NCBI GenBank assembly: GCA_038245785.1
Contig: JBBRSB010000012.1
Span: forward strand, 1-64,000
Direction of reading: 5' to 3'
Length of the DNA: 64,000 nucleotides
Source of the DNA: Gloeobacterales cyanobacterium
GTDB taxonomy: Bacteria > Cyanobacteriota > Cyanobacteriia > Gloeobacterales > PMM-0068
Shown: in pieces, positions 1 through 23,888 of the stretch
Layout of the letters: every line of letters begins with the position of its first letter
Numbering within the stretch: the stretch's first letter is position 1
Position numbers and translations under genes: made by a program
The notes under the pieces: generated by a model
The model's input: only the letters and a program-made list of their open reading frames with translations
The model's database searches: none
Told to the model about the DNA's origin: nothing

Positions 1-3
1 CTT

Positions 4-645
4 TTGTTGCTGACCTTTGGCCAATCTAATTCTTTATCTCAAATGAGTGAAAAACAGACACCGACCTTGGTGCAGCTAGAAGATGGCAAAGCAGTACGGG
101 TCGGAGCCATGGACTACAACGACCGTACACCACAGACGATTCGGCGTTTTGTGGGCGATACGATGACCATGCTGATGAACTGGAGCGGTACCCTTCCTCC
201 CACGAGCCCAGAAGAATCGAGAAATCCAAAACCAGACCCTGGTGTTTCTCTGGGGACGAAGAAAGTAGCGCAAGCTACCTGGCAGGCAGGCTTTGCTCTA
301 AGCGAAAACTTTCGGGGTGAATTTCTACAGCTAGTTGCTGACCTCATGCCTCAGGAAGTGTTCAAAGGGAATGCCCAAGCTGTTTTAGTCGTTAACTATA
401 TGTCTAACCCCACCAAGGTCGAGAATGGTAAATGGAAGATGAGCATGGTCGCCAATCTAATCATCTTTGCCAAAGGTGATAACGCTGGCAAAGCAATTTC
501 CTTCAATAAAGAAATTTTTGTCAAATCCGTAGAAGCTCCTAGAGTTCCTGCTGGAGCCTCTGAACTAGAAAAGGCAATCTATCAAGTCCGCCAGTCAGGT
601 CTAGAGATTTACGCTATTCGTGACCTCATTCGAGAGAACTTATAG
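4..645 (+). CDS. Cyanobacterial T4SS inner-membrane component, VirB8-like (5' part lies outside the window)
   Basis: PTLVQLEDG...FVGDTMTMLMNWSGTLP resembles proteins of cyanobacterial conjugation clusters; lies upstream of virB10-like and virD4. Confidence 0.6.
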   Translation: MLLTFGQSNSLSQMSEKQTPTLVQLEDGKAVRVGAMDYNDRTPQTIRRFVGDTMTMLMNWSGTLPPTSPEESRNPKPDPGVSLGTKKVAQATWQAGFALSENFRGEFLQLVADLMPQEVFKGNAQAVLVVNYMSNPTKVENGKWKMSMVANLIIFAKGDNAGKAISFNKEIFVKSVEAPRVPAGASELEKAIYQVRQSGLEIYAIRDLIRENL

Positions 646-955: not shown

Positions 956-2425
956 ATGGACCAGAAGTATGGTGACCAGACAAGTGGCAAGTCAAAACCT
1001 AATTTGAATCAGATGGCAAAATTAGTCGACCTTGAAACTATCTATGGGACTGAGTCTGCATTAGGTGGAGACCGTTCAGCGGCTCTGTCAGGCTTTGAAA
1101 ACAGTGACACAAGTGCAGAGGATAACTACAGCGCCCCTCCTTCTCTTCAAAAAGATCCTTACCAATCTCGAACTAAACAGCCGTTGTGGTCTAATCCTTT
1201 TGCTAAAGCTGGATTGGTTGGAACAGGAACCATGATTGCCGTGATTGCGACAAGTTCACTGCTGGGTGACATTACCAAAGAAACTGTAGCTCAACCAGTA
1301 CCTGAGAAACAGGAAGTAACTTCCTCCGCAAACATTCCTACTCCTGAAGAGGATAAAGGCAAGTTGTTAGCAGAGTTAGCGCTTGGTAAGCAACAGCAAA
1401 CCATATCTTCAATGAATAAGGCAAATCAGTCGATGTTTCCCAAACCAACATCTGTGGTTACTCGGCCTATGGTCCGCCCCATATCTTTTACCCGACCGAT
1501 TATTAGACAAGTCTATTCCGTTCCAGCCTATACACGGAGCGCTCCAATCCAGACTGCTATTTCCCAGAATATGGACCCGCAACAGCAGTGGCAAGCGCTG
1601 TCGCAAGCAGGCAGCTTTGGTCAAACTTCCAGCGGAGCCAATGGAATTGATAATTCTGGAGGATATAGGAACTTTTCCAATCCCAATCCGCAATTAGCCT
1701 CCCAAGTAACGAATAGCCCAGAGGAAGAGCCCCCGCTTTTGACAGGAAGATTACGGAGGTCCGTGATCACAGGCACTATGGCTCAGGGTTTGCTAGCAAC
1801 ACCTGTGATTTGGGAAGGCGCTAAACGAGGAGGCTATCAAAGCGACGCTGACAATGCTTCGGGTTCTTCTCCTGATGACGAAGACCGTTTCATTATTCAA
1901 CTCACTTCCTCCTTAAAAGCTTCAGATGGCAGTGAAGCATTACTTGTAGGCACCCCACTGGTAGTGAAAGTACGTTCGGTTTCTGGCAGTGGCACGCTCA
2001 AGCTTTCTACAGTTGCCGTGATCATTGAAGGTGAAGAAACCTCCCTCCCCCCAGGAACAATCAGTATTCGGGCATCCGGTGGTGGTCCTCTAACAGCTCG
2101 GAACATGCAGGACCGAGGGGCCGAGATTGCTTCCAGTGATGCCGGTGTTTTTGCCCTGGCAGGGATTAGTAAAGCCGCGTCTCTCTTTACTCGTGCTCAA
2201 TCCACCACGACTACCTCAGGATTTAGTTCTACGACTTCTAGCCAGAATCCTCCCCCAGATATTTTGGCCGGAATTTTAGAAGGGGGAACCAATGCCATTG
2301 TTAGCCAGATCCAAGCCCGCAATGAGAGAGCTATTCAGGAATCCTTGGCAAGACCAGATATTTGGATGCTTGCTGCCGGAACCTCTGTCCAAGTCTTTGT
2401 GAATAAATCGGTACCAAACCTATGA
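956..2425 (+). CDS. virB10: TrbI/VirB10 family T4SS core protein
   Basis: N-proximal TM (AGLVGTGTMIAVIA), Pro/Gln-rich linker, C-terminal beta domain ending LAAGTSVQVFVN; GAGGAG RBS. Confidence 0.75.
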   Translation: MDQKYGDQTSGKSKPNLNQMAKLVDLETIYGTESALGGDRSAALSGFENSDTSAEDNYSAPPSLQKDPYQSRTKQPLWSNPFAKAGLVGTGTMIAVIATSSLLGDITKETVAQPVPEKQEVTSSANIPTPEEDKGKLLAELALGKQQQTISSMNKANQSMFPKPTSVVTRPMVRPISFTRPIIRQVYSVPAYTRSAPIQTAISQNMDPQQQWQALSQAGSFGQTSSGANGIDNSGGYRNFSNPNPQLASQVTNSPEEEPPLLTGRLRRSVITGTMAQGLLATPVIWEGAKRGGYQSDADNASGSSPDDEDRFIIQLTSSLKASDGSEALLVGTPLVVKVRSVSGSGTLKLSTVAVIIEGEETSLPPGTISIRASGGGPLTARNMQDRGAEIASSDAGVFALAGISKAASLFTRAQSTTTTSGFSSTTSSQNPPPDILAGILEGGTNAIVSQIQARNERAIQESLARPDIWMLAAGTSVQVFVNKSVPNL

Positions 2426-4569
2426 AAAAAATCTGCGCACTATTGGCACTCAGCGTTTTTGTGGCACAAGTTGCTCAGGCTAGTCCTGTCCATAGCATCT
2501 TTGCTAGCCAAGCAGAGGGCAAAGGTGGACAACTGGCCAGCGTCGTTTTATGGCCTGGATACGGCACAAACTTGAATCTGATTCCAACGGGAGAAACAGT
2601 CAAGAAGGCCTGGCTAGATGACCCTTCTCGCGTCGCCATTGATTTTGATGGATGCTTAGGACACAGTGCTGGCAACAGCAGCGGAGGTGCGGATGGCTGC
2701 GGTGCTACGGTAATTCACCTAAGGCAAATTACCGGCGTGTCCTTCCCTGGCTTAGTCAGTTCTGCTAATTCCACTACCTTGCTCACTTTAATTGCAGAAG
2801 GTCCCCAAGGAAGAAAACTCTACCAATTCAAGGTTGTAGTGGGGAAAGGGACACCCGAGTACAACACGATGACTATTCAACCGGACTCTCAAGGGACACC
2901 CTATATTGAACTAGGGTTGCGCAAAGCCACCTTAGAAGATGTCCAGAAAGGGCTGACTATTGCTGAGTCCAAGAAATTAATTAGTCGTCGGGATGGGGCC
3001 TGGAGCAAAGTCCAAAACTTTCTAGCTCAAGTCCGAAATGGAGAATCGATCAATACTGCAGCCCAAGTGACTGGGGTCAATATGGCCATCATCACGAAGC
3101 TGGCTGAGTTAGGAACGGCAGAGCAGATGGCTCCCATGGCGTTGCCCTCAATCCCTAAACAACCTGAGATTGCACCACTACCATCTATCAAAACAGAGGC
3201 AGTCAAGCCAGCCATACTCCCAGTAACGGAAAAACCACTTCCTCCAGTAGAACGACCAGTCGTTGAGGCCTCGATATCAATTCCTGTTGTTGCTCCTATC
3301 AAGCCCTTAGCTAAACCCCTTGAGATTATTACTAAGGCTCCAGAAGTGGCTCTTGTCTCGGTAAAAGGGTTGAGCAAACCAATAGTGGCAAGCAATAAAA
3401 CAGATGTTGGCTATTGGCTTTTGGACAAAGGTCTAGCTGATTCTGAAGCGTGGTCTAAAGGCACAGATAGTCTGGATTATCAAGTCTTTTTTGACGTTCT
3501 GCAACGAGGGAAAGAAACAGGAATTTCATTCTCAGAAGCCCTAAAGATGGCTCAACGCCTCAGTCGCGTTAATGATGAAAGACTAGGTTCCCTTACTAGA
3601 ACATTAGCAGGAAGACGGATGGCACAGAAAAAAGAACAGAGTGCACCGCTAGCTTCACCCATTCCAGTAGTTAAAGCTATTGCTGCTATCTCTGCAAATA
3701 CTTCGCTTCCCCAGACACCGCTCCTAACACCAACTATAGAATCCACAGCTAGCTTTAAAGTCAGTACAGATAGACCCAGTGAAATTCTTGCACGTTTCCA
3801 AATTCCGATGAAAGAGGGAGGTGTGATTACCGCAGACAAATTATTAGATGTGCAACAGCGCATTTGGAATTGGAAAAAAGGAGCATATCGCCAGAAGTTA
3901 GGTAAATTTATAGCAACTTTGATTACTTCTCAAGGAATAGACAGAGAGCATTCTCTCCAGACCGCAGTGCAAGAATCTGGACTCTCCCTCAATGATGTAC
4001 AGTATTTAGCTAAAGCTTCTCAGTCGAAGGCCTCAGCTAATCAAAATTTTCCTGCTGAGCCTAAGCAGCTTGCTTCGTCCCCAATACAAGTACCCAGCAC
4101 AAAGACGATTTTGAGTCCTCAGCCAAACTTAGTATCAAAGTTCACTTTACCTACTACTTTAAACACTTCAGAAAAGAAAGTACCTTCAGCAATAAAGCCA
4201 GTTTTTACTACTATAAAAGTCACAACAGGCGCTAATCAAGAATCAATAGCTATAAATTCTGAAAAAACAGTAAAAATAGGATCTTTGGGCAGTACAGCCG
4301 ATACTCTTGTTAAGTTGAGAATCCCTTTGAAAGATGGGGGCTCCATCGGGGCAGAACAACTCTTGACCGTTCAAGAGAGAATCTGGAATTGGAAAGGGGG
4401 CTCAGTCCGCAAACAGTTAGGTAGCTTTATTGCAGCACTAACTGCTTCTGCCGCTCAAGGCGATGAAAAAGCGATCGAAACAGCAGTTAATCAGTCAGGG
4501 TTGTCTCTCAATGAAGTGCAATATCTCCTGAGCAAGACGATCACCCAAACTGTTTCTTCTAAAGAATAG
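2422..4569 (+). CDS. Secreted T4SS-associated protein (VirB9-position) with duplicated C-terminal helical domains
   Basis: Signal peptide MKKICALLALSVFVAQVAQA; LWPGYGTNLNLIPTGETVKKAWLDDPSR motif of cyanobacterial conjugation clusters; ATGA overlap with virB10. Confidence 0.6.
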   Translation: MKKICALLALSVFVAQVAQASPVHSIFASQAEGKGGQLASVVLWPGYGTNLNLIPTGETVKKAWLDDPSRVAIDFDGCLGHSAGNSSGGADGCGATVIHLRQITGVSFPGLVSSANSTTLLTLIAEGPQGRKLYQFKVVVGKGTPEYNTMTIQPDSQGTPYIELGLRKATLEDVQKGLTIAESKKLISRRDGAWSKVQNFLAQVRNGESINTAAQVTGVNMAIITKLAELGTAEQMAPMALPSIPKQPEIAPLPSIKTEAVKPAILPVTEKPLPPVERPVVEASISIPVVAPIKPLAKPLEIITKAPEVALVSVKGLSKPIVASNKTDVGYWLLDKGLADSEAWSKGTDSLDYQVFFDVLQRGKETGISFSEALKMAQRLSRVNDERLGSLTRTLAGRRMAQKKEQSAPLASPIPVVKAIAAISANTSLPQTPLLTPTIESTASFKVSTDRPSEILARFQIPMKEGGVITADKLLDVQQRIWNWKKGAYRQKLGKFIATLITSQGIDREHSLQTAVQESGLSLNDVQYLAKASQSKASANQNFPAEPKQLASSPIQVPSTKTILSPQPNLVSKFTLPTTLNTSEKKVPSAIKPVFTTIKVTTGANQESIAINSEKTVKIGSLGSTADTLVKLRIPLKDGGSIGAEQLLTVQERIWNWKGGSVRKQLGSFIAALTASAAQGDEKAIETAVNQSGLSLNEVQYLLSKTITQTVSSKE

Positions 4570-4604: not shown

Positions 4605-6245
4605 ATGCCAGAGCTATTTTATCAACTACGAGCAATACTGCTTTCTTCCAATGGATTATTATTAATAACCTGTGCAGTTGGCCTTGGCGCTATTTCTCTC
4701 TATGACAACCGTAAGAGTAAACTGGCTACGAGTCGCTGGAGCAATAGTAAAGAAAAGGGCGTCGCTCGTAGACAAGCCCAATACCAAATGAAGGAACGTC
4801 AGCGTAATGCTGTTGCGCTCTATGTTGGTAAACCAACCATGACTCAGTCGAGTAATCTCTACATTCCGGATGCTCAAAGAGGGGTTGCAGTCTGCGGTGG
4901 ACCTGGCTCTGGTAAAACATTCTCAGTGATTGACCCAGCCATTCGCTCTGCTATTGACCAAGGCTTTCCTACCATTGTTTATGACTTTAAATATCCTACG
5001 CAGACATCACGTATTGCAGGTTATGCAGCCAAGGCCGGCTATGAAGTGCGAGTTTTTGCACCAGGCTTTGAGGAATCTAGTGTCTGTAATCCATTAGACT
5101 TTTTGCGGGATGAAACGGATGCAGAAACTGCCCGTCAAATATCGGTAGTCCTCAATAAAAACTTTAAATTATCTAGCCAAAATACGGAGGATGCTTTCTT
5201 CTCAGTAGCCGGAGACCAACTGATTGAAGCAGTATTGATGCTTGCTAAAAGTACACCCTATAAAGATGTAATGATGTGCCAGTCCATATTAAGTATGGAT
5301 AGCTTAACGCAGCGATTACAGAATACTGAATTGAACTATTGGGTTAGAGCTAGTTTTGGCCAATTGCTTTCTGTTGCAGACTCAGAGAAGACGGTTGCCA
5401 GCATTATTGCTACTGCCAATAATGTCTTTACTCGATTTATGAAGAAGAATATTTTGGGAGCTTTCTGCGGTCAATCTACGCTCCCTATTGACCTAGAAGG
5501 TAAGCAGCTTCTGATCATTGGAATGGATAGGGAGAGACGTGATGTGGTCGGACCTTTATTAGCTACTGTTTTACATATGATTGTCACTCGCAATGTGGTA
5601 AAAAAGCGCAAAGACCCCTTGATTCTAGCCATAGATGAATTGCCGACTTTATACTTACCTTCTTTAAGCCAATGGTTGAATGAAAATCGAGAAGATGGAT
5701 TATGTACCATCTTGGGATTTCAGAATCTAGTTCAGTTAGAGAAGGTCTATGGTAAAGAACTTGCAAGGGCTATTGTTGGGGGCTGTGCGACTAAAGCGAT
5801 CTTCAATCCCCAGGAATATGATTCAGCTAAGTTATTTAGTGACTTCTTAGGGGATGAAGAAATCCATTATCGTCAGAAATCAAGAGGACGTAGTGGTGGT
5901 CAATCTAATGTAAGTACTTCTGATCAGGAAAAAACGAGAAAACTCTTTGAAGCAAGCCAATTTTTGAAACTCCCTTCCGGAAAGTGTATTCTCATCAACC
6001 CTGGCTATAGCAATGAAAATGAATCATCAATGCCCATAGAGCAGAAGGTGAAAATACCGCCAAGAGATTTAAAAGCCTTTAAGAAAAGTGAGCAGGAATG
6101 GGAAAAAGTAAAAGAACAATTAAAACGAAGTAGTGGTCAGAAATCGCCTAGTACAGAGGAATTAAAAAGGAGATATATAGCTAGTAATAGTCTATATCCT
6201 CTGCCAGAAAATAAATTTGAGGAGAATTTTATGAATGCTTTGTAA
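4605..6245 (+). CDS. virD4: Type IV coupling protein VirD4/TraG
   Basis: N-terminal TM, Walker A GGPGSGKT, YDFK, Walker B ILAIDELP, LGFQ motif. Confidence 0.9.
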   Translation: MPELFYQLRAILLSSNGLLLITCAVGLGAISLYDNRKSKLATSRWSNSKEKGVARRQAQYQMKERQRNAVALYVGKPTMTQSSNLYIPDAQRGVAVCGGPGSGKTFSVIDPAIRSAIDQGFPTIVYDFKYPTQTSRIAGYAAKAGYEVRVFAPGFEESSVCNPLDFLRDETDAETARQISVVLNKNFKLSSQNTEDAFFSVAGDQLIEAVLMLAKSTPYKDVMMCQSILSMDSLTQRLQNTELNYWVRASFGQLLSVADSEKTVASIIATANNVFTRFMKKNILGAFCGQSTLPIDLEGKQLLIIGMDRERRDVVGPLLATVLHMIVTRNVVKKRKDPLILAIDELPTLYLPSLSQWLNENREDGLCTILGFQNLVQLEKVYGKELARAIVGGCATKAIFNPQEYDSAKLFSDFLGDEEIHYRQKSRGRSGGQSNVSTSDQEKTRKLFEASQFLKLPSGKCILINPGYSNENESSMPIEQKVKIPPRDLKAFKKSEQEWEKVKEQLKRSSGQKSPSTEELKRRYIASNSLYPLPENKFEENFMNAL

Positions 6246-6310
6246 GAGAAAAATAGCATTGTTGAATAGTGTATTGGGAAGAAAATTATAAATTCAGGAG
6301 AACTACCGTA

Positions 6311-7387
6311 GTGAAATTGAAAAACTTGTTCTTGAGTAGTTTTGTAGGGCTGGGTTTACTCGCTTCCCTAAGTACAATTAGTTTGCAGACAGCTAAAGCT
6401 AGCGACACAATAGAAAAAAAAGCAGAGAAAAGCTTATTTGTCATTAATAAAGATGGCAAATACGGTTACATAGACCAGACAGGTAAGGTTGTTATCCAGC
6501 CACAGTTCACTAGCTCTTCTCCATTCTCTGATGGCTTTGCTCTAGTATCAAAGGGTAGTAAGTACGGATATATAGATTCAACTGGAGAGCTGATAATTCA
6601 ACCTCAATTTGATGATGCGCATCCATTCTCGGAAGGCTTAGCTCCAGTTAAAGTCGGCGATAAATATGGCTACATTGACTATACAGGGAAAGTTACTATT
6701 CAACCTCAATATGACCTGGCTGGTCCTTTTGAGGATGGATTGGCATTTGTTGAAGTCAATAGACGTATTGGTTATATCAATAAAAAGGGTGAAATGGTAA
6801 TTAGCCCTAAATTTGCCACCCTATGGCCTGAAGATGAAGATGATCCTTCCTTTTCTGAAGGATTGGCTCGAGTACAAATCGGTAGACAACGTGGCTATAT
6901 CAATACAACTGGAAAGTTAGCTATTAAGCCAACTTTCCAATCCGCACGTAGATTCTCCAATGGTATGGCAGCTATCAAAGTTGATGGCCTTTGGGGATAT
7001 ATTAATAAATTAGGCAAACTAGTTATTCAGCCAAAGTTTGATTCCGCTAAATTCTTTTCTGAGGGTTTAGCTGCAGTGTCTATCAATGGAAAAGAAGGGT
7101 ACATTGATAAAACAGGAAAATTTGTCATCAAGCCCCAGTATTCTATTGCTGAAGAGTTTTCTAAAGGATTAGCTCAAGTCAACATTGGAGGTGTGCAATA
7201 CCGCGTAGGATGGGAAGGTGGACAGTGGGGATATATAGATAAATTCGGTCGAGAAGTCATCCAAAAGAAATATGACGAGGCTGGTACATTTTATGGAGAT
7301 TTAGCACGAGTAGAAATAGATAATAAGTATGGTTATATCAATCAAAAAGGTAAATATATATGGGGGCCTGTAGAACTTTCTGAATAA
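6311..7387 (+). CDS. Secreted WG-repeat (KWG) protein; candidate immunity protein
   Basis: Many K-[YW]-G-Y-I-D-x-x-G...F-S-E-G-L-A units; Sec signal ending AKA; AGGAG at 6296-6300 supports GTG start at 6311. Confidence 0.85.
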   Translation: MKLKNLFLSSFVGLGLLASLSTISLQTAKASDTIEKKAEKSLFVINKDGKYGYIDQTGKVVIQPQFTSSSPFSDGFALVSKGSKYGYIDSTGELIIQPQFDDAHPFSEGLAPVKVGDKYGYIDYTGKVTIQPQYDLAGPFEDGLAFVEVNRRIGYINKKGEMVISPKFATLWPEDEDDPSFSEGLARVQIGRQRGYINTTGKLAIKPTFQSARRFSNGMAAIKVDGLWGYINKLGKLVIQPKFDSAKFFSEGLAAVSINGKEGYIDKTGKFVIKPQYSIAEEFSKGLAQVNIGGVQYRVGWEGGQWGYIDKFGREVIQKKYDEAGTFYGDLARVEIDNKYGYINQKGKYIWGPVELSE

Positions 7388-7449
7388 TATTTTGATCTAG
7401 ATATTTGATTTCGCGTATCGATACTTATCAACTTTTGGAGAATTAAGGG

Positions 7450-8670
7450 ATGCTAGACTTTACTAACGAGCAGAAACAAACAAGTGCTTTTGCTTTTGCA
7501 TTGCGCTGGGAGGGTGGATATGTGAATCATCCTAAGGATCGTGGAGGAGCGACTAACTTAGGGGTTACACAATTGGTCTATAACAAATATCGCCAGGACC
7601 AGGGCCAACCTGTTCAGACAGTCAGAAACATAACTAAGGAAGAAGCAAAGAGTATATATATTCATGGTTACTGGAATAAAGTTCAAGGAGATCGGTTGCC
7701 GACATTGACAGCCATTTCACTTGCAGACTTTGCTTATAATAGTGGGCCGACTCGTGCCATCCACGAGATGAAACGCTTCTTGCGCGACAATGGATATGAT
7801 ATTCCAATGACTGCTGAAGGTAATGCTGTAAAGCATGAGAGATTGGATTCTGAAACAATGGCAGCAGTAAAGGATTATGTCTCTAAGCATGGTGATGAAA
7901 AGTTAGCACGGGGCATTACTCTAGAACGAAGCCAATTCGTAAAAGCGATCGTTAAGGAAAAACCAAGTCAAGGAACTTTTCTAGATGGTTGGAATAATCG
8001 CATCGATGCTCTAGAAGTGTATATCCATAAATTGAATTCTGAAAAAACACAGCCTACTCAAAAAGTAACGTCAAATTCGACGCATCAATCTCAGACAGAT
8101 AATCTGCCATCACTTTCAGCAGAATCCCAAACTTTTGCTCAGGCGAGTCAGATGATCTTGGATAAGCGGGGACATTTAGAAGGGGATACTCAAGTTTATC
8201 GAGGGTATACCTATACTTTCCAGAAGCAAGCAGATACTCTGATAACCCAAAAGCATGGTCAGGAAATTTTTAAACAGGTTGGTAGCCAGGTTGTCACAGA
8301 CCAGGTAACTCCGGTGGACATGAAAGTTCTGCATGCTGTTACCCAAAATCTAGAAAAAAGTGAGCACTTGGTTAAAGATTTCGCTAAGGACGTTCAGCTA
8401 ATTCTAGATAAGCGGGGGCATGTAGAAAATGGCACCCAAGTATTCCATGGCAATACTTATACTTTTGAGAAAGATGGAGATACTTTGACAGTTCAGAAGA
8501 ACCAGCAAGAGATCTTTAAACAAGTTGGTGACCGCGTTGTTCATACTCAAGTGACCCAGCAAGATTTGGGAATACTGGATAATGTTGCCCAGGCTTTAGA
8601 GCAAAAAGGATCGCATACTCCTGAAGCCAACCAGCCTAAAACTCCAGTTGGTGCAAGCTTGGAGCGTTAA
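7450..8670 (+). CDS. GH108 family lysozyme with PG-binding helix and two tandem C-terminal repeats
   Basis: EGGYVNHPKDRGGATNLGVT GH108 signature, DFAYNSGP, FLDGWNNRI; no signal peptide. Confidence 0.9.
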   Translation: MLDFTNEQKQTSAFAFALRWEGGYVNHPKDRGGATNLGVTQLVYNKYRQDQGQPVQTVRNITKEEAKSIYIHGYWNKVQGDRLPTLTAISLADFAYNSGPTRAIHEMKRFLRDNGYDIPMTAEGNAVKHERLDSETMAAVKDYVSKHGDEKLARGITLERSQFVKAIVKEKPSQGTFLDGWNNRIDALEVYIHKLNSEKTQPTQKVTSNSTHQSQTDNLPSLSAESQTFAQASQMILDKRGHLEGDTQVYRGYTYTFQKQADTLITQKHGQEIFKQVGSQVVTDQVTPVDMKVLHAVTQNLEKSEHLVKDFAKDVQLILDKRGHVENGTQVFHGNTYTFEKDGDTLTVQKNQQEIFKQVGDRVVHTQVTQQDLGILDNVAQALEQKGSHTPEANQPKTPVGASLER

Positions 8671-8710: not shown

Positions 8711-8741
8711 TATTCCCAAATAATAGGTGTGAGATAAATTG

Positions 8742-9899
8742 ATGAAACGGAAAGTATCGCTCTTGAGTCTAGCCGGAGCCTTATTTATTCTGACGGCTAC
8801 CCCTGGAATGACTCAGTCTCTTGGGTATAACTCGGTGCCGATTACACGATATAAAGGGGCTGCTATACCTGACTTCCAAAAAATTACCCTTGGCGGTCTC
8901 CCTCCTTTGACCGACAGTGGATCTTTTACCATTCCTGGTTCTCGAACCGTTGTCTTTAGACCTGGAGATAGACCCGTCAATGTGTTAACTCTTGGAAGTC
9001 TGAAAGATATTGGTGCTCCTAACTTAAACTTGGGTAGGGTTAGCCAGCTCACAGGCATTAATCTAGCAGACCAATCCCTAGCGAACTTTCCCCTCCTCAA
9101 AACTCAAAATGTTGGTAACTTGGTGGATGCTATTCCCGGTTTAGGCAACTTACCTATCCGAGAAGTGCAGCCGATTATGGACCTTTTACAGCAGAACAGC
9201 CCAGGGCAGAGTGGTTTGGGAGGCTTTGGTAATTTAGGAAGCCTAGGACAGGCTACAACGGTTTCTCAAGCAATTGAGCTAATTCCAGGATTTAAAAACG
9301 AAGTTCTTGGCAAACTGAATCTAAATGCTTACTCTCTACTTTCCTTAGATGGCATCACTAATGCAGCTTTAGGCAAATTTGGCGGAGCCTTCTCTGCAGA
9401 AATCAATAAGTTTACTGGTTTAGATAAAATACCTCTTTCTAAATTTCCTATTCCCCTTACCTTTTCAGGTGTTGTGGGAACGGTAGATGTAGTCTATGGC
9501 CCCAAAGAAGCAAGGCGAATGAATACGATTACAGGCAGCGACCAAGAAGGATTTAATGTTGCCTGTGCTCAACAATCTTGTTCCTATATTGAGTTGAGCG
9601 GTATTCCCTATGGGAAGCAATGGATTTCAGGAAAATCTCAGCAAGTTAGCGGTGGATTTGGGACTTTGAAGGCGCTGAATGGAGGTAAAGAACCAACCGG
9701 GAGACTGCCTTTTGGCGATTCTTTTAAGGTTGCACTTACAAAAGTAACAGAGTCTCAAGGAACTGCAGATTTTGGTGCCTATTTTCGTATATGCGCAACC
9801 CTACCTTGGGGAGAGTTTACCTGTTCGCCCTACTTTATTGGACCGGTTCCCTTCATTCCCTCAGTTCAAGAGAAAGATCCGATCTTCTTAGGACCCTAG
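8742..9899 (+). CDS. Secreted protein typical of cyanobacterial conjugation clusters
   Basis: Signal peptide; Leu/Pro-periodic middle; C-terminal CAQQSCSYIEL, GKQWISGK, GKEPTGRLPFG, FRIC...CSPYFIGPVP. Confidence 0.55.
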   Translation: MKRKVSLLSLAGALFILTATPGMTQSLGYNSVPITRYKGAAIPDFQKITLGGLPPLTDSGSFTIPGSRTVVFRPGDRPVNVLTLGSLKDIGAPNLNLGRVSQLTGINLADQSLANFPLLKTQNVGNLVDAIPGLGNLPIREVQPIMDLLQQNSPGQSGLGGFGNLGSLGQATTVSQAIELIPGFKNEVLGKLNLNAYSLLSLDGITNAALGKFGGAFSAEINKFTGLDKIPLSKFPIPLTFSGVVGTVDVVYGPKEARRMNTITGSDQEGFNVACAQQSCSYIELSGIPYGKQWISGKSQQVSGGFGTLKALNGGKEPTGRLPFGDSFKVALTKVTESQGTADFGAYFRICATLPWGEFTCSPYFIGPVPFIPSVQEKDPIFLGP

Positions 9900-9950: not shown

Positions 9951-10904
9951 CTACGGGTTAATTTTTCTCAGCAAGTCAACGGTTTCTTGATAACGATTTT
10001 TATCACTTAGGGAAAGAAATAATTTTGCTGCTTTTTGTAGATCAGCCGTAGCACCTTGTTTGTCATCAAGCTGAACACGCGTATTTCCTAAATTGAAATA
10101 AGCATTGGCAAGTTCAAGCTTGGGGTTGGCATTCGACATTCGCCTGGGATCACTTTTGCCATTTCTCCGAGAACTATCGATTGAATTGTTCTGAGAGTAG
10201 CTGGACCTGTTTTGTCTGGGATTCCTGATTGGATTTGGGCCGAGACTCTGACCATCTCTTTGCTTAAAATGGTCTTCAGCCTCTTGATCATGTTGAAAGC
10301 TATCTATGATGCTCCGCTTAAGATTTTCGATCGCGCTTGGCTTGTTACTAAGAGGATTACGGAACCAACCCTTCTTCTTATAGCTGTTATAGGCAGCAGC
10401 GAACTCAGGATCTAGACGGAGGGCCTGATCAATATTTAGTCTTGGTTCCTCTGCTACTTCCCACTGATTACTAGACTGTTTGATATTCTTTGCAGACTCT
10501 CGGTTAATCTTATTGGCCACAGGACGGAGCAAGATATTAGAAACCAGGATGGCCAGTGAACCAATGAAGGCTTGAAATACAAATCCAGCCCCAGTCAAAC
10601 AACCCAGGGCCGCCGCACACCATAGGGTTGCGGCAGTATCTAGCCCACGAACACTGATTCCTTCGCGGAAGATTACTCCTCCTCCAAGAAAACCAATTCC
10701 AGAGACGACCTGAGCGGCAACACGGGTTGGACTGGAATCTCCCGGCGTCATAACGGATAGCATCACAAACATAGCGGCGCCAGTCGATACAAGAGCATTG
10801 GTTCTTAGTCCTGCCCCTCGTTGTCGCCACTGTCTTTCTAACCCAACGGTCCCGCCTAACAAGAGAGCAAGCCCAAGCCGAGCAGAGAATTCCAACCAGG
10901 TCAT
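9951..10904 (-). CDS. mgtC: MgtC/SapB family protein with C-terminal TPR motifs
   Basis: GLERQWRQRGAGLRTNALV, RVAAQVVSGIGFLGGGVI; TPR-like AYFNLGNTRVQLDDKQGATADLQKAA. Confidence 0.85.
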   Translation of the reverse strand: MTWLEFSARLGLALLLGGTVGLERQWRQRGAGLRTNALVSTGAAMFVMLSVMTPGDSSPTRVAAQVVSGIGFLGGGVIFREGISVRGLDTAATLWCAAALGCLTGAGFVFQAFIGSLAILVSNILLRPVANKINRESAKNIKQSSNQWEVAEEPRLNIDQALRLDPEFAAAYNSYKKKGWFRNPLSNKPSAIENLKRSIIDSFQHDQEAEDHFKQRDGQSLGPNPIRNPRQNRSSYSQNNSIDSSRRNGKSDPRRMSNANPKLELANAYFNLGNTRVQLDDKQGATADLQKAAKLFLSLSDKNRYQETVDLLRKINP

Positions 10905-22964: not shown

Positions 22965-23597
22965 ATGATTCGTCCCGCCATGCCCCGCAAACTACTATTT
23001 CTTCCAGGCGCTTCGGGCAACACCCAGTTTTGGCGGCCGGTTGCCGATCTACTTAGTTACTCAGCAGAAAAAACTCATCTGGGTTGGCCGGGGTTGGGCT
23101 CCACCCCAACTGATCCAAGCATTAATGGCATACATGGCCTTGTAGCCAGGGTCGTAGCCCAAATCGATCGCCCTACCGCGCTTATTGCACAGTCAATGGG
23201 TGGCGTCATTGCTATACGTGCCGCCCTGGAAAGGCCAGACCGTATAACGCATCTTGTTTTGACAGTGACCTCTGGCGGTGTAGATATTTCAGACCTTGGC
23301 GCATAAGACTGGCGACCATTGTTCCATGAATCACATCCGTCGCTGCCTCGCTGGCTCTCAGACTACAACGAGAACCTGGAGCCTAAGCTCCCAAAAATCA
23401 CCGCGCCGACACTGCTCCTCTGGGGCGATGCCGATCCGATCAGCCCTATCAGCGTCGGTCAACGATTGGCATCATTGCTACCGAACGCCAAATTGCATAT
23501 TCTCCCTGGTGGAAACCACGATCTGGCAAGCGTGTTCGCCCATAAGGTTGCGCCGCTCATCAACGAGCATCTTTCCAAGCGCAGTTTCAATTTCTAA
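22965..23597 (+). pseudogene. Alpha/beta hydrolase interrupted by an in-frame TAA (23304-23306)
   Basis: AQSMGG nucleophile before the stop; PTLLLWGDADP and GGNH continue in the same frame after it. Confidence 0.8.
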
Positions 23598-23888
23598 ACA
23601 CAATGAAAAAGTGTCTCTATCTTTTTGCTTTTGAGCTAAGTTGCTATCTACAAATGTATTTAGCTCATCAAAGATAAACTTTATGTCTTCATCAAAATTG
23701 GTATGGTTCATAGCAAAACCTCACAGAGAAAGAACTTCTATGCAGGTATAACCTGTATAGATTTAAATTACGTTTATGGCCAGCGACATGGCAGGCAATC
23801 CTCAGATCAAGTGCATCAACACTCAGCTAAAATAAGGCAGTGTTGTCTAACCAGGCTAGGGTTTCAGTGGTTCTCTAGGGTAAAAATT

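Follow-up and report, generated by a model that had tools for sequence, protein, structure and literature searches.

In the genome of a Gloeobacterales cyanobacterium, an open reading frame two genes 3′ of a gene for a VirD4 coupling protein codes for a muramidase that ends in two copies of a 75-aa unit and has no signal peptide, which raises the question of what this C-terminal module does and how the enzyme could reach peptidoglycan. The original prediction was that the module is an export tag for a type IV secretion system (T4SS), analogous to XVIPCD or to the tandem BID domains of Bartonella effectors. The window is the whole stretch of DNA analysed, 64,000 nucleotides long, and coordinates refer to it.

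A signal-less muramidase with a tandem module in a T4SS cluster

The carrier gene (7450-8670, forward strand) lies among the following features:

1..645, forward: 3′ part of a conserved T4SS-locus gene, continuing on contig C13 (141-base exact overlap)
956..2425, forward: VirB10/TrbI-like protein (E 7e-7, under the curated cut-off; orthologue annotated TrbI/VirB10)
2422..4569, forward: secreted 715-aa T4SS-locus protein (adjoins VirB10 in related loci; no Pfam family)
4605..6245, forward: VirD4 coupling protein (TrwB_AAD_bind, E 7e-31; TraG-D_C; T4SS-DNA_transf)
6247..8133, forward: swappable cassette of partner gene and catalytic domain (DNA homology breakpoints; contig joint)
6269..7387, forward: WG-repeat protein with 8 repeats and an N-terminal hydrophobic segment (likely start GTG at 6311)
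7450..8040, forward: GH108 muramidase and PG_binding_3 regions, EGGY intact, signal peptide absent (Pfam and PDB matches)
8041..8133, forward: Ser/Thr/Gln-rich linker, residues 198-228 (right-hand edge of the swapped cassette)
8134..8358, forward: module copy 1, residues 229-303 (predicted helix, six-stranded beta-meander, helix)
8380..8604, forward: module copy 2, residues 311-385 (predicted to share one continuous helix with copy 1; pLDDT 97 for this unit)
8605..8670, forward: C-terminal tail of 21 aa ending GASLER, plus stop (predicted disordered, pLDDT 41-60)
8739..9899, forward: secreted 386-aa T4SS-locus protein (conserved in related loci; some orthologues with an M23 extension)

The window begins at a contig end, and its positions 1-141 overlap exactly, over 141 bases, with the reverse strand of contig C13 (C13:1-141), which supplies virB2-like, virB3-like, virB4-like and virB6-like genes, named by similarity and gene order and matching nothing in Pfam. 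Since C13 joins the window and brings in these genes, the cluster is complete from virB2 to VirD4. It looks chromosomal, and housekeeping genes follow the 386-aa gene. The locus resembles MPF_C, the cyanobacterial conjugative T4SS class (PMC4027160), in that VirB4, VirB3, VirB6, VirB10-like and VirD4 genes are ordered as on Nostoc plasmids, but unlike the MPF_C plasmid loci it has housekeeping flanks and no adjacent relaxase. The accessible part of the paper defining MPF_C (PMC4027160) reports no experimental study of the class as of 2014 and describes no substrate signal or effector; our own literature search, with subscription papers mostly outside it, found for this class no substrate signal, effector or description of this domain or system. 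A relaxase search with five queries, MOBV not among them, found a MOBF on contig C49 and a MOBP on contig C86, neither beside the T4SS cluster.

Several further observations concern this cluster and its surroundings. The MOBF relaxase-helicase-primase gene on C49 (15.6 kb, likely a separate mobile element) has 1578 codons, an Arg/Gln-rich tail and no module, and has in its vicinity a gene similar to the C-terminal repeats of the 715-aa protein. The latter combines a long, Pro-rich central part with two C-terminal blocks, similar to each other, that are missing from its 270-290-aa orthologues. Straight after the cluster, 9951-10904 on the reverse strand codes for an MgtC family protein fused to a TPR-like tail, and at 22965-23634 an alpha/beta hydrolase is apparently split across two short overlapping ORFs. 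A scan for promoters and terminators gave a signal no better than chance.

The carrier is a protein of 406 aa ending in KTPVGASLER, in which Pfam places GH108 at residues 15-99 (E 6e-26) and PG_binding_3 at residues 134-184 (E 7e-5, slightly short of the cut-off), and its N-terminal 197 aa match solved GH108 proteins at E 4e-19 to 2e-8. Both marks of GH108 membership, the PF05838 match and the EGGY motif, are present; we take the Glu of this motif to be catalytic, and the motif is retained in 11 of 12 GH108-type relatives. Judged by sequence, the GH108 region is likely a toxin domain. Solved GH108 proteins (PF05838 + PF09374; PDB 7DNP, 2IKB, 6V40 and 2NR7) are 166-199 aa long and have no such C-terminal module.

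The tandem repeat was confirmed as predicted: 44 of 75 residues and 143 of 225 bases are identical between the two units at a period of 82 aa, shifts of 81 or 83 yielding scattered matches only, and 2000 shuffles of unit 2 reached at best 16 identities (mean 5.9). The predicted Ser/Thr/Gln linker ahead of unit 1 was also borne out, these three residues making up 55% of residues 198-228. An AlphaFold2 model of unit 2, computed from a 62-row alignment, has a mean pLDDT of 97 and consists of one helix, six short strands and one helix; in a model of the tandem, the last helix of unit 1 merges into the first of unit 2 (helix 63-97) and the final ~20 residues are disordered. Positions Y27, D62, G13, G24, L9 and L36 are the best conserved and look to be so for structural reasons.

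The module is a real, undescribed domain family. No family of Pfam, NCBIfam or PHROG covers it, Pfam matched neither the tandem nor any of 12 units, and no NCBIfam family was common to the 62 rows. Identity with a cell-wall-binding family, which the original prediction had named as evidence against itself, was not seen in any of the three collections. A sequence search of solved structures with the module returned chance matches only, and reversed sequences, used as a profile control, gave no match. The ESM Atlas returned one cyanobacterial cluster at 0.77, which we treat as a lead only. With the single-unit model, Foldseek against the PDB and viral models found nothing at E≤0.001 and VIA-align over 48,161 chains gave a best Z of 4.8 with none ≥5, searches that say nothing for fold novelty or for distance from any family.

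Carriers of the module and their link to VirD4

A 12-row profile matched 183 clusters (50% identity) among 1.84 billion representatives, 150 of which were listed, and of these best 150 of 183 matches 144 kept the domain on iteration, while the other six (P0031, P0094, P0117, P0135, P0145 and P0161) lost it and were dropped. Among the matches listed, the last copy of the module ends no more than 35 aa from the C-terminus in 129 of 144 carriers (median 17.5), as it does in 79 of 81 further carriers, and a hydrophobic stretch of transmembrane length occurs in a single one of the 144 listed, compared with 26% of 1950 background ORFs. Pfam matched 34 of the 143 listed carriers that were scanned and none of the remaining 109. 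The 34 named carriers among the matches listed comprise 13 wall hydrolases or binders, 13 helicase-type proteins (Strawberry-notch/SNF2 proteins or parts thereof), five relaxases (two MOBF, two MOBP, one MOBQ) and three primases. Further carriers came to light at individual loci: PIN toxins, Nostoc plasmid proteins of 1.5-1.7 kaa, a MOBP relaxase, and a module that lies behind a broken MOBV relaxase. The module is thereby shown to be portable, ending cytoplasmic proteins that are otherwise unrelated, and the C-terminal fusions to diverse toxins and relaxases that the original prediction had expected from a profile search of this genome and other cyanobacteria were indeed found.

Every match that carried an organism name was cyanobacterial, most matches having no name. 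In a plasmid collection the unit of this carrier had no match, and a more central family member matched nine records, all cyanobacterial. A metagenome scan yielded one relevant locus, a module remnant without a catalytic domain on a 2.9-kb contig; a second match was not confirmed by the profile. In a 72-row tree, whose 76 columns are too few for deep forks, 27 of 29 hydrolase-borne units grouped together (90/90, branch drawn open), and one MOBQ and one MOBP relaxase fell into one strongly supported clade, a sign of module exchange. The tails that follow the module contain 13% Gln compared with 5% in the background and have a mean net charge of +0.26 (58 positive and 38 negative of 120); a tail pattern, devised post hoc and thus descriptive, was found in 71 of the 144 carriers among the matches listed and in 33 of 1950 background ORFs.

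Some carrier types deserve separate mention. Fusions of a PIN_3 toxin to the module occur at seven loci (L013, L014, L016, L017, L019, L025 and L026), and several of the genomes show no VirD4. The 1.5-1.7 kaa Nostoc plasmid proteins ending in the module (L024, L027-L030, L034, L037, L038; P0179-P0258) form a large family with no Pfam domain and often lie 12-23 kb from VirD4 on the same contig. A second family, conserved, of 370-850 aa and with no informative Pfam domain, is encoded one or two genes before or after VirD4 in cyanobacterial conjugative loci (L123-L128, L131-L133, L135, L143) and may be a transferred protein or an adaptor. Three secreted WD40 propellers of one family carry the module in mid-protein (L170:7948-9921; P0242, P0257), and Gloeobacter-type genomes contain free-standing module-only ORFs of 105-133 aa (L073, L075, L081, L082, L084, L085), which may be remnants or decoys.

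Occurrence of the module follows one clade of VirD4. NCBI gives Anthocerotibacter and Gloeobacter as the source of proteins encoded in genomes of this order, which points to Gloeobacterales. Of 14 genomes of the order, 10 match this VirD4 over its full length, and the module is present in nine of these ten, the exception being an assembly in 530 contigs (G013), and in none of the four others, in which VirB4 also had no match. In a sample of 300 genomes, with at most 15 candidates scored per genome, the module was found in 10 of 12 genomes with a close-clade VirD4 (16 of the other 288), in 4 of 19 with a more distant VirD4 and in 12 of 269 with neither, counts that overstate the association because kin are not independent. 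A carrier lies no more than two genes from VirD4 in 10 of 14 close-clade loci, four of these being weak matches; none adjoins VirD4 in five loci of the second, distant clade, and none is near it in seven Gloeobacter-type chromosomal VirD4 loci. VirB4 lies elsewhere on the genome in all five Gloeobacter-type genomes tested. The Gloeobacter-type T4SS is chromosomal and split (L052-L065), with a VirB10-VirD4 block, VirB4 elsewhere and, at yet another site, a gene for an M23 protein with the module (Glr0398 in G. violaceus).

Independence of VirD4, the other finding that was to speak against a tag, was observed in part: of the 26 carrier genomes in the 300-genome sample, 12 had no VirD4 at 1e-40, and in 11 of those a profile found none at 1e-5. 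These genomes, mostly drafts although two (G180 and G322) are in two contigs, hold PIN fusions, large plasmid-type proteins, one relaxase or remnants. The further idea that the module could be used to find the whole effector repertoire was not borne out here. Three profiles found no carrier in this genome beyond ORF 7450-8670, and the module is absent from several candidate substrates, namely this genome's MOBF and MOBP relaxases, the MobF encoded on plasmid gamma of Nostoc PCC 7120 and, in the T4SS locus of genome G326, an effector-like gene.

Exchange of the catalytic domain together with the upstream gene

Among 17 close relatives of the carrier, whose last 178 aa (the module part) are 58-93% identical to it, 11 have a GH108 N-terminus and six an unrelated one: chitinase/GH19-like in three, GH73 and M23 with a PG-binding domain in two, and a VgrG3-like muramidase in one. 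One relative (P0003) is 90% identical over these 178 aa and 22% identical over the N-terminus. In G002, a genome of the same genus, VirD4 is followed by a gene for an RsiV-like protein with a signal peptide, a two-module enzyme that resembles GH19 (E 3.5e-5, short of the cut-off) and the same 386-aa gene. DNA homology between the two loci ends at 6205 and restarts at 8148. Contigs from two public sequencing runs of different studies, aligned at 80% likeness and thus possibly from related species rather than alleles, break at similar places: in run X2 a contig connects 6247 with 8133 through a different sequence, its shorter side measuring 47 bases, and in run X5 one contig departs at 6247 into another gene. 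Both runs also contain the WG-GH108 form. As the breakpoints coincide with the stop of VirD4 and the start of the module, the exchanged unit comprises the partner gene and the catalytic domain. The locus comparisons thereby show that relatives exchange the upstream signal-peptide gene and the catalytic domain jointly, as a cassette, and keep the module.

The adjacent exported gene changes with the toxin, the pairs being WG and GH108 in this genome, RsiV-like and GH19-like in G002, lipoprotein-like and SLT-M23 in G326, and WG and WD40 with M23-PG-binding in G003. The G002 partner matches PdaC and, weakly, DUF3298, and its best PDB match is 3CYG (E 1.7e-5). According to the accessible part of PMC5014341, RsiV, which has PdaC and DUF3298 domains and 3CYG as its best structural match, inhibits lysozyme. 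WG genes had no match in G002, and the one at 6269..7387 is the only one in this genome. In G003, the WG and WD40 signal-peptide genes precede a 935-aa M23/PG-binding protein with three modules, VirD4, and a 317-aa one-module protein (L045:1554-2504) whose lead domain resembles TseH-like clusters, a lead only. In G326, the gene after the lipoprotein-like one codes for an SLT/M23 protein bearing two modules; another contig carries a VirD4 with 75% identity to the one studied here. The T4SS locus of G326 also contains a homologue of the 317-aa protein that has the tail only and is preceded by a small secreted gene (L177:17824-18696). A scan of genome contigs with a single protein as query returned this G326 locus along with two loci from outside the cyanobacteria, both module-free.

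A module-free cluster in G003 (L162:4782-12000), which resembles a second array of toxins and immunity proteins, codes in order for PdaC-like, GH19-like and PdaC-like proteins, a 277-aa protein, a pesticin-type lysozyme, a WG protein and a 1592-aa protein; with its GH19-like gene flanked by PdaC-like genes and its lysozyme gene followed by a WG gene, it repeats both partner-enzyme pairings. Of eight other WG loci opened, this cluster is the only one where these checks found a hydrolase neighbour. No partner gene is evident beside the Gloeobacter-type M23 carriers or the G012 carrier, whose neighbours are housekeeping genes. WG repeats were not found described as immunity proteins in the literature, and the accessible part of PMC8855297, which deals with these repeats, is silent on function. 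The sequence and placement of the WG protein point to a likely role as a periplasmic immunity protein.

Proposed export and killing, and the competing explanations

All 18 hydrolase carriers are without an N-terminal hydrophobic segment, compared with six of six ordinary M23 proteins of this genome that have one, so that another route to peptidoglycan is needed. From what is established about conjugation, passage through a T4SS is what relaxases, primases, helicases, toxin-antitoxin toxins and signal-less wall hydrolases would have in common. We therefore read the module and the tail as a two-part substrate signal, of which the 21-aa tail would likely be the second half, and the cassette as a toxin with its periplasmic immunity. 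A signal-less hydrolase with a C-terminal module is here encoded together with a T4SS, as expected of an effector-immunity pair. The predicted XVIPCD- or BID-like tag has good comparative backing in the toxin and relaxase fusions, in the C-terminal position in 129 of 144 carriers among the matches listed and in the association with one VirD4 clade; the carrier genomes in which no VirD4 was matched do not fit. Taken alone, a role as a type IV export tag is quite probable. That the tag also serves an antibacterial system with a periplasmic immunity gene appears somewhat more probable than the contrary.

According to the mechanism that we propose, VirD4 or a VirD4-bound adaptor would recognise the module, and the tail would go first in translocation. 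The signal-less muramidase would be delivered to the periplasm of a touched cell and cut peptidoglycan there, while its Sec-exported partner would block it in the producer's own periplasm. Relaxases, helicases and primases, which the same machine would move in conjugation, would share the tag and are its probable source, as is the case for BID in alphaproteobacteria.

The same tag could instead send a VirB1-like helper that opens the donor or recipient wall for assembly or transfer, the upstream gene limiting self-damage. The hydrolase gene does sit within the T4SS cluster, PDB entries related to GH108 bear the name secretion activator, the M23 carriers of Gloeobacter-type genomes are conserved in a housekeeping setting where no immunity gene is evident, and, as orthologues of the 386-aa gene have an M23 extension in some other cyanobacteria and not here, a separate hydrolase could fill that role. 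A helper gives no reason, however, for four unrelated catalytic families at module identities of 58-93%, each with a different exported partner, nor for the second G003 carrier beside VirD4, with its different and TseH-like (lead only) first domain; we regard it as unlikely. A distinctly improbable explanation is that the tail is the true signal and the folded module, making no contact with VirD4, a docking or stabilising unit for a relaxosome protein or for the VirD4-adjacent adaptor family. It would account for the similar tails of module-free proteins (this genome's MOBF relaxase and the G326 effector-like gene), for loci in which a module-bearing protein adjoins VirD4 and the relaxase is module-free, and for conserved positions that look structural, but the swap boundary is the start of the module and not that of the tail, the hydrolases keep two or three copies of the module, and this locus has no separate adaptor-like carrier.

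Explanations that dispense with export fare worse. A muramidase with tandem repeats at its C-terminus has the arrangement usual for wall-binding domains, and the 27 of 29 hydrolase-borne units that cluster in the tree, on an open branch, would suit a repeat holding the hydrolase to its substrate. Nevertheless, relaxases, helicases, primases and PIN toxins, all cytoplasmic, end in members of this one family, the hydrolase-type and wide-family profiles match at 99.7% (some rows being shared), the enzymes already have PG_binding_1 or PG_binding_3, and no wall-binding family matches, leaving this explanation only the slimmest chance. A nucleic-acid-binding or general interaction unit of mobile elements, spread by gene fusion, is very unlikely, even though most of the named distant carriers act on DNA and the module persists in genomes without VirD4 and within a secreted WD40 protein: the units here are neutral and acidic (net charges 0 and -4, the tail having +1), the strict C-terminal position would go unexplained, and signal-less wall hydrolases would be left with no route to their substrate.

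Our preferred reading, a type IV tag, invites comparison with two known ones. The XVIPCD system has wall hydrolases as cargo and an upstream exported immunity gene, and Pfam includes an XVIPCD model. No profile match links XVIPCD and the module, which is often tandem and also found on relaxases. In the accessible part of PMC8740702, the XVIPCD of the Xanthomonadales X-T4SS (X-Tfe/X-Tfi) is likewise a C-terminal folded unit of ~80 aa with a flexible Gln-rich tail on antibacterial effectors, but its topology is alpha-alpha-beta-beta-beta, in contrast to the helix, six strands and helix predicted here. BID, as described in the accessible parts of PMC6509941 and PMC5675462, likewise occurs as C-terminal copies with a tail across relaxases, toxin-antitoxin toxins and effectors (Bartonella effectors, the VbhT toxin, alphaproteobacterial relaxases). 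The module is shared in the same way by MOBF, MOBP and MOBQ relaxases, PIN toxins and hydrolases and is sometimes tandem, the PIN_3 fusions recalling VbhT, a toxin with BID; wall hydrolases among the cargo set it apart. In BID four helices form a bundle and the tail is positively charged (PMC6509941), whereas the module is predicted to be mostly beta and the tails of its family are near neutral. As its predicted topology differs from both published ones, the module is probably neither; by every comparative test run it works like BID and XVIPCD, and it belongs to neither by sequence or predicted topology. The accessible part of PMC12419801 mentions a VirD4-binding domain in no detail. PMC13756078, which concerns type IV pili and was set aside, calls the Gloeobacterales early-branching.

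The broadest proposal is tentative and falls a little short of even probability: that in Gloeobacterales an MPF_C machine for conjugation became a weapon against bacteria, chromosomally encoded and dependent on contact, whose swappable hydrolase and immunity cassettes are loaded through a helix-meander-helix tag derived from relaxases and other conjugative cargo, the module being a third independent folded tag beside XVIPCD and BID and the system the first bacteria-killing T4SS in the phylum. An export tag for an antibacterial toxin, which the module likely is, would give cyanobacteria a secretion signal and a weapon that are both new. If the killing role is true, contact-dependent warfare would extend to early-branching cyanobacteria, the WG-repeat and RsiV-like proteins would be muramidase immunity families, and the module would offer a tag for protein delivery between cyanobacteria. 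The profile lists candidate substrates at once, in 183 clusters of which most have no known domain, and substrate choice by the cyanobacterial T4SS class becomes testable on Nostoc PCC 7120 plasmid gamma, where the module-bearing PCC7120DELTA_RS01080, a member of the 370-850-aa family, lies two genes after VirD4, and on the small mobilisable plasmid pC of Crocosphaera ATCC 51142, where the module is on the MobQ relaxase.
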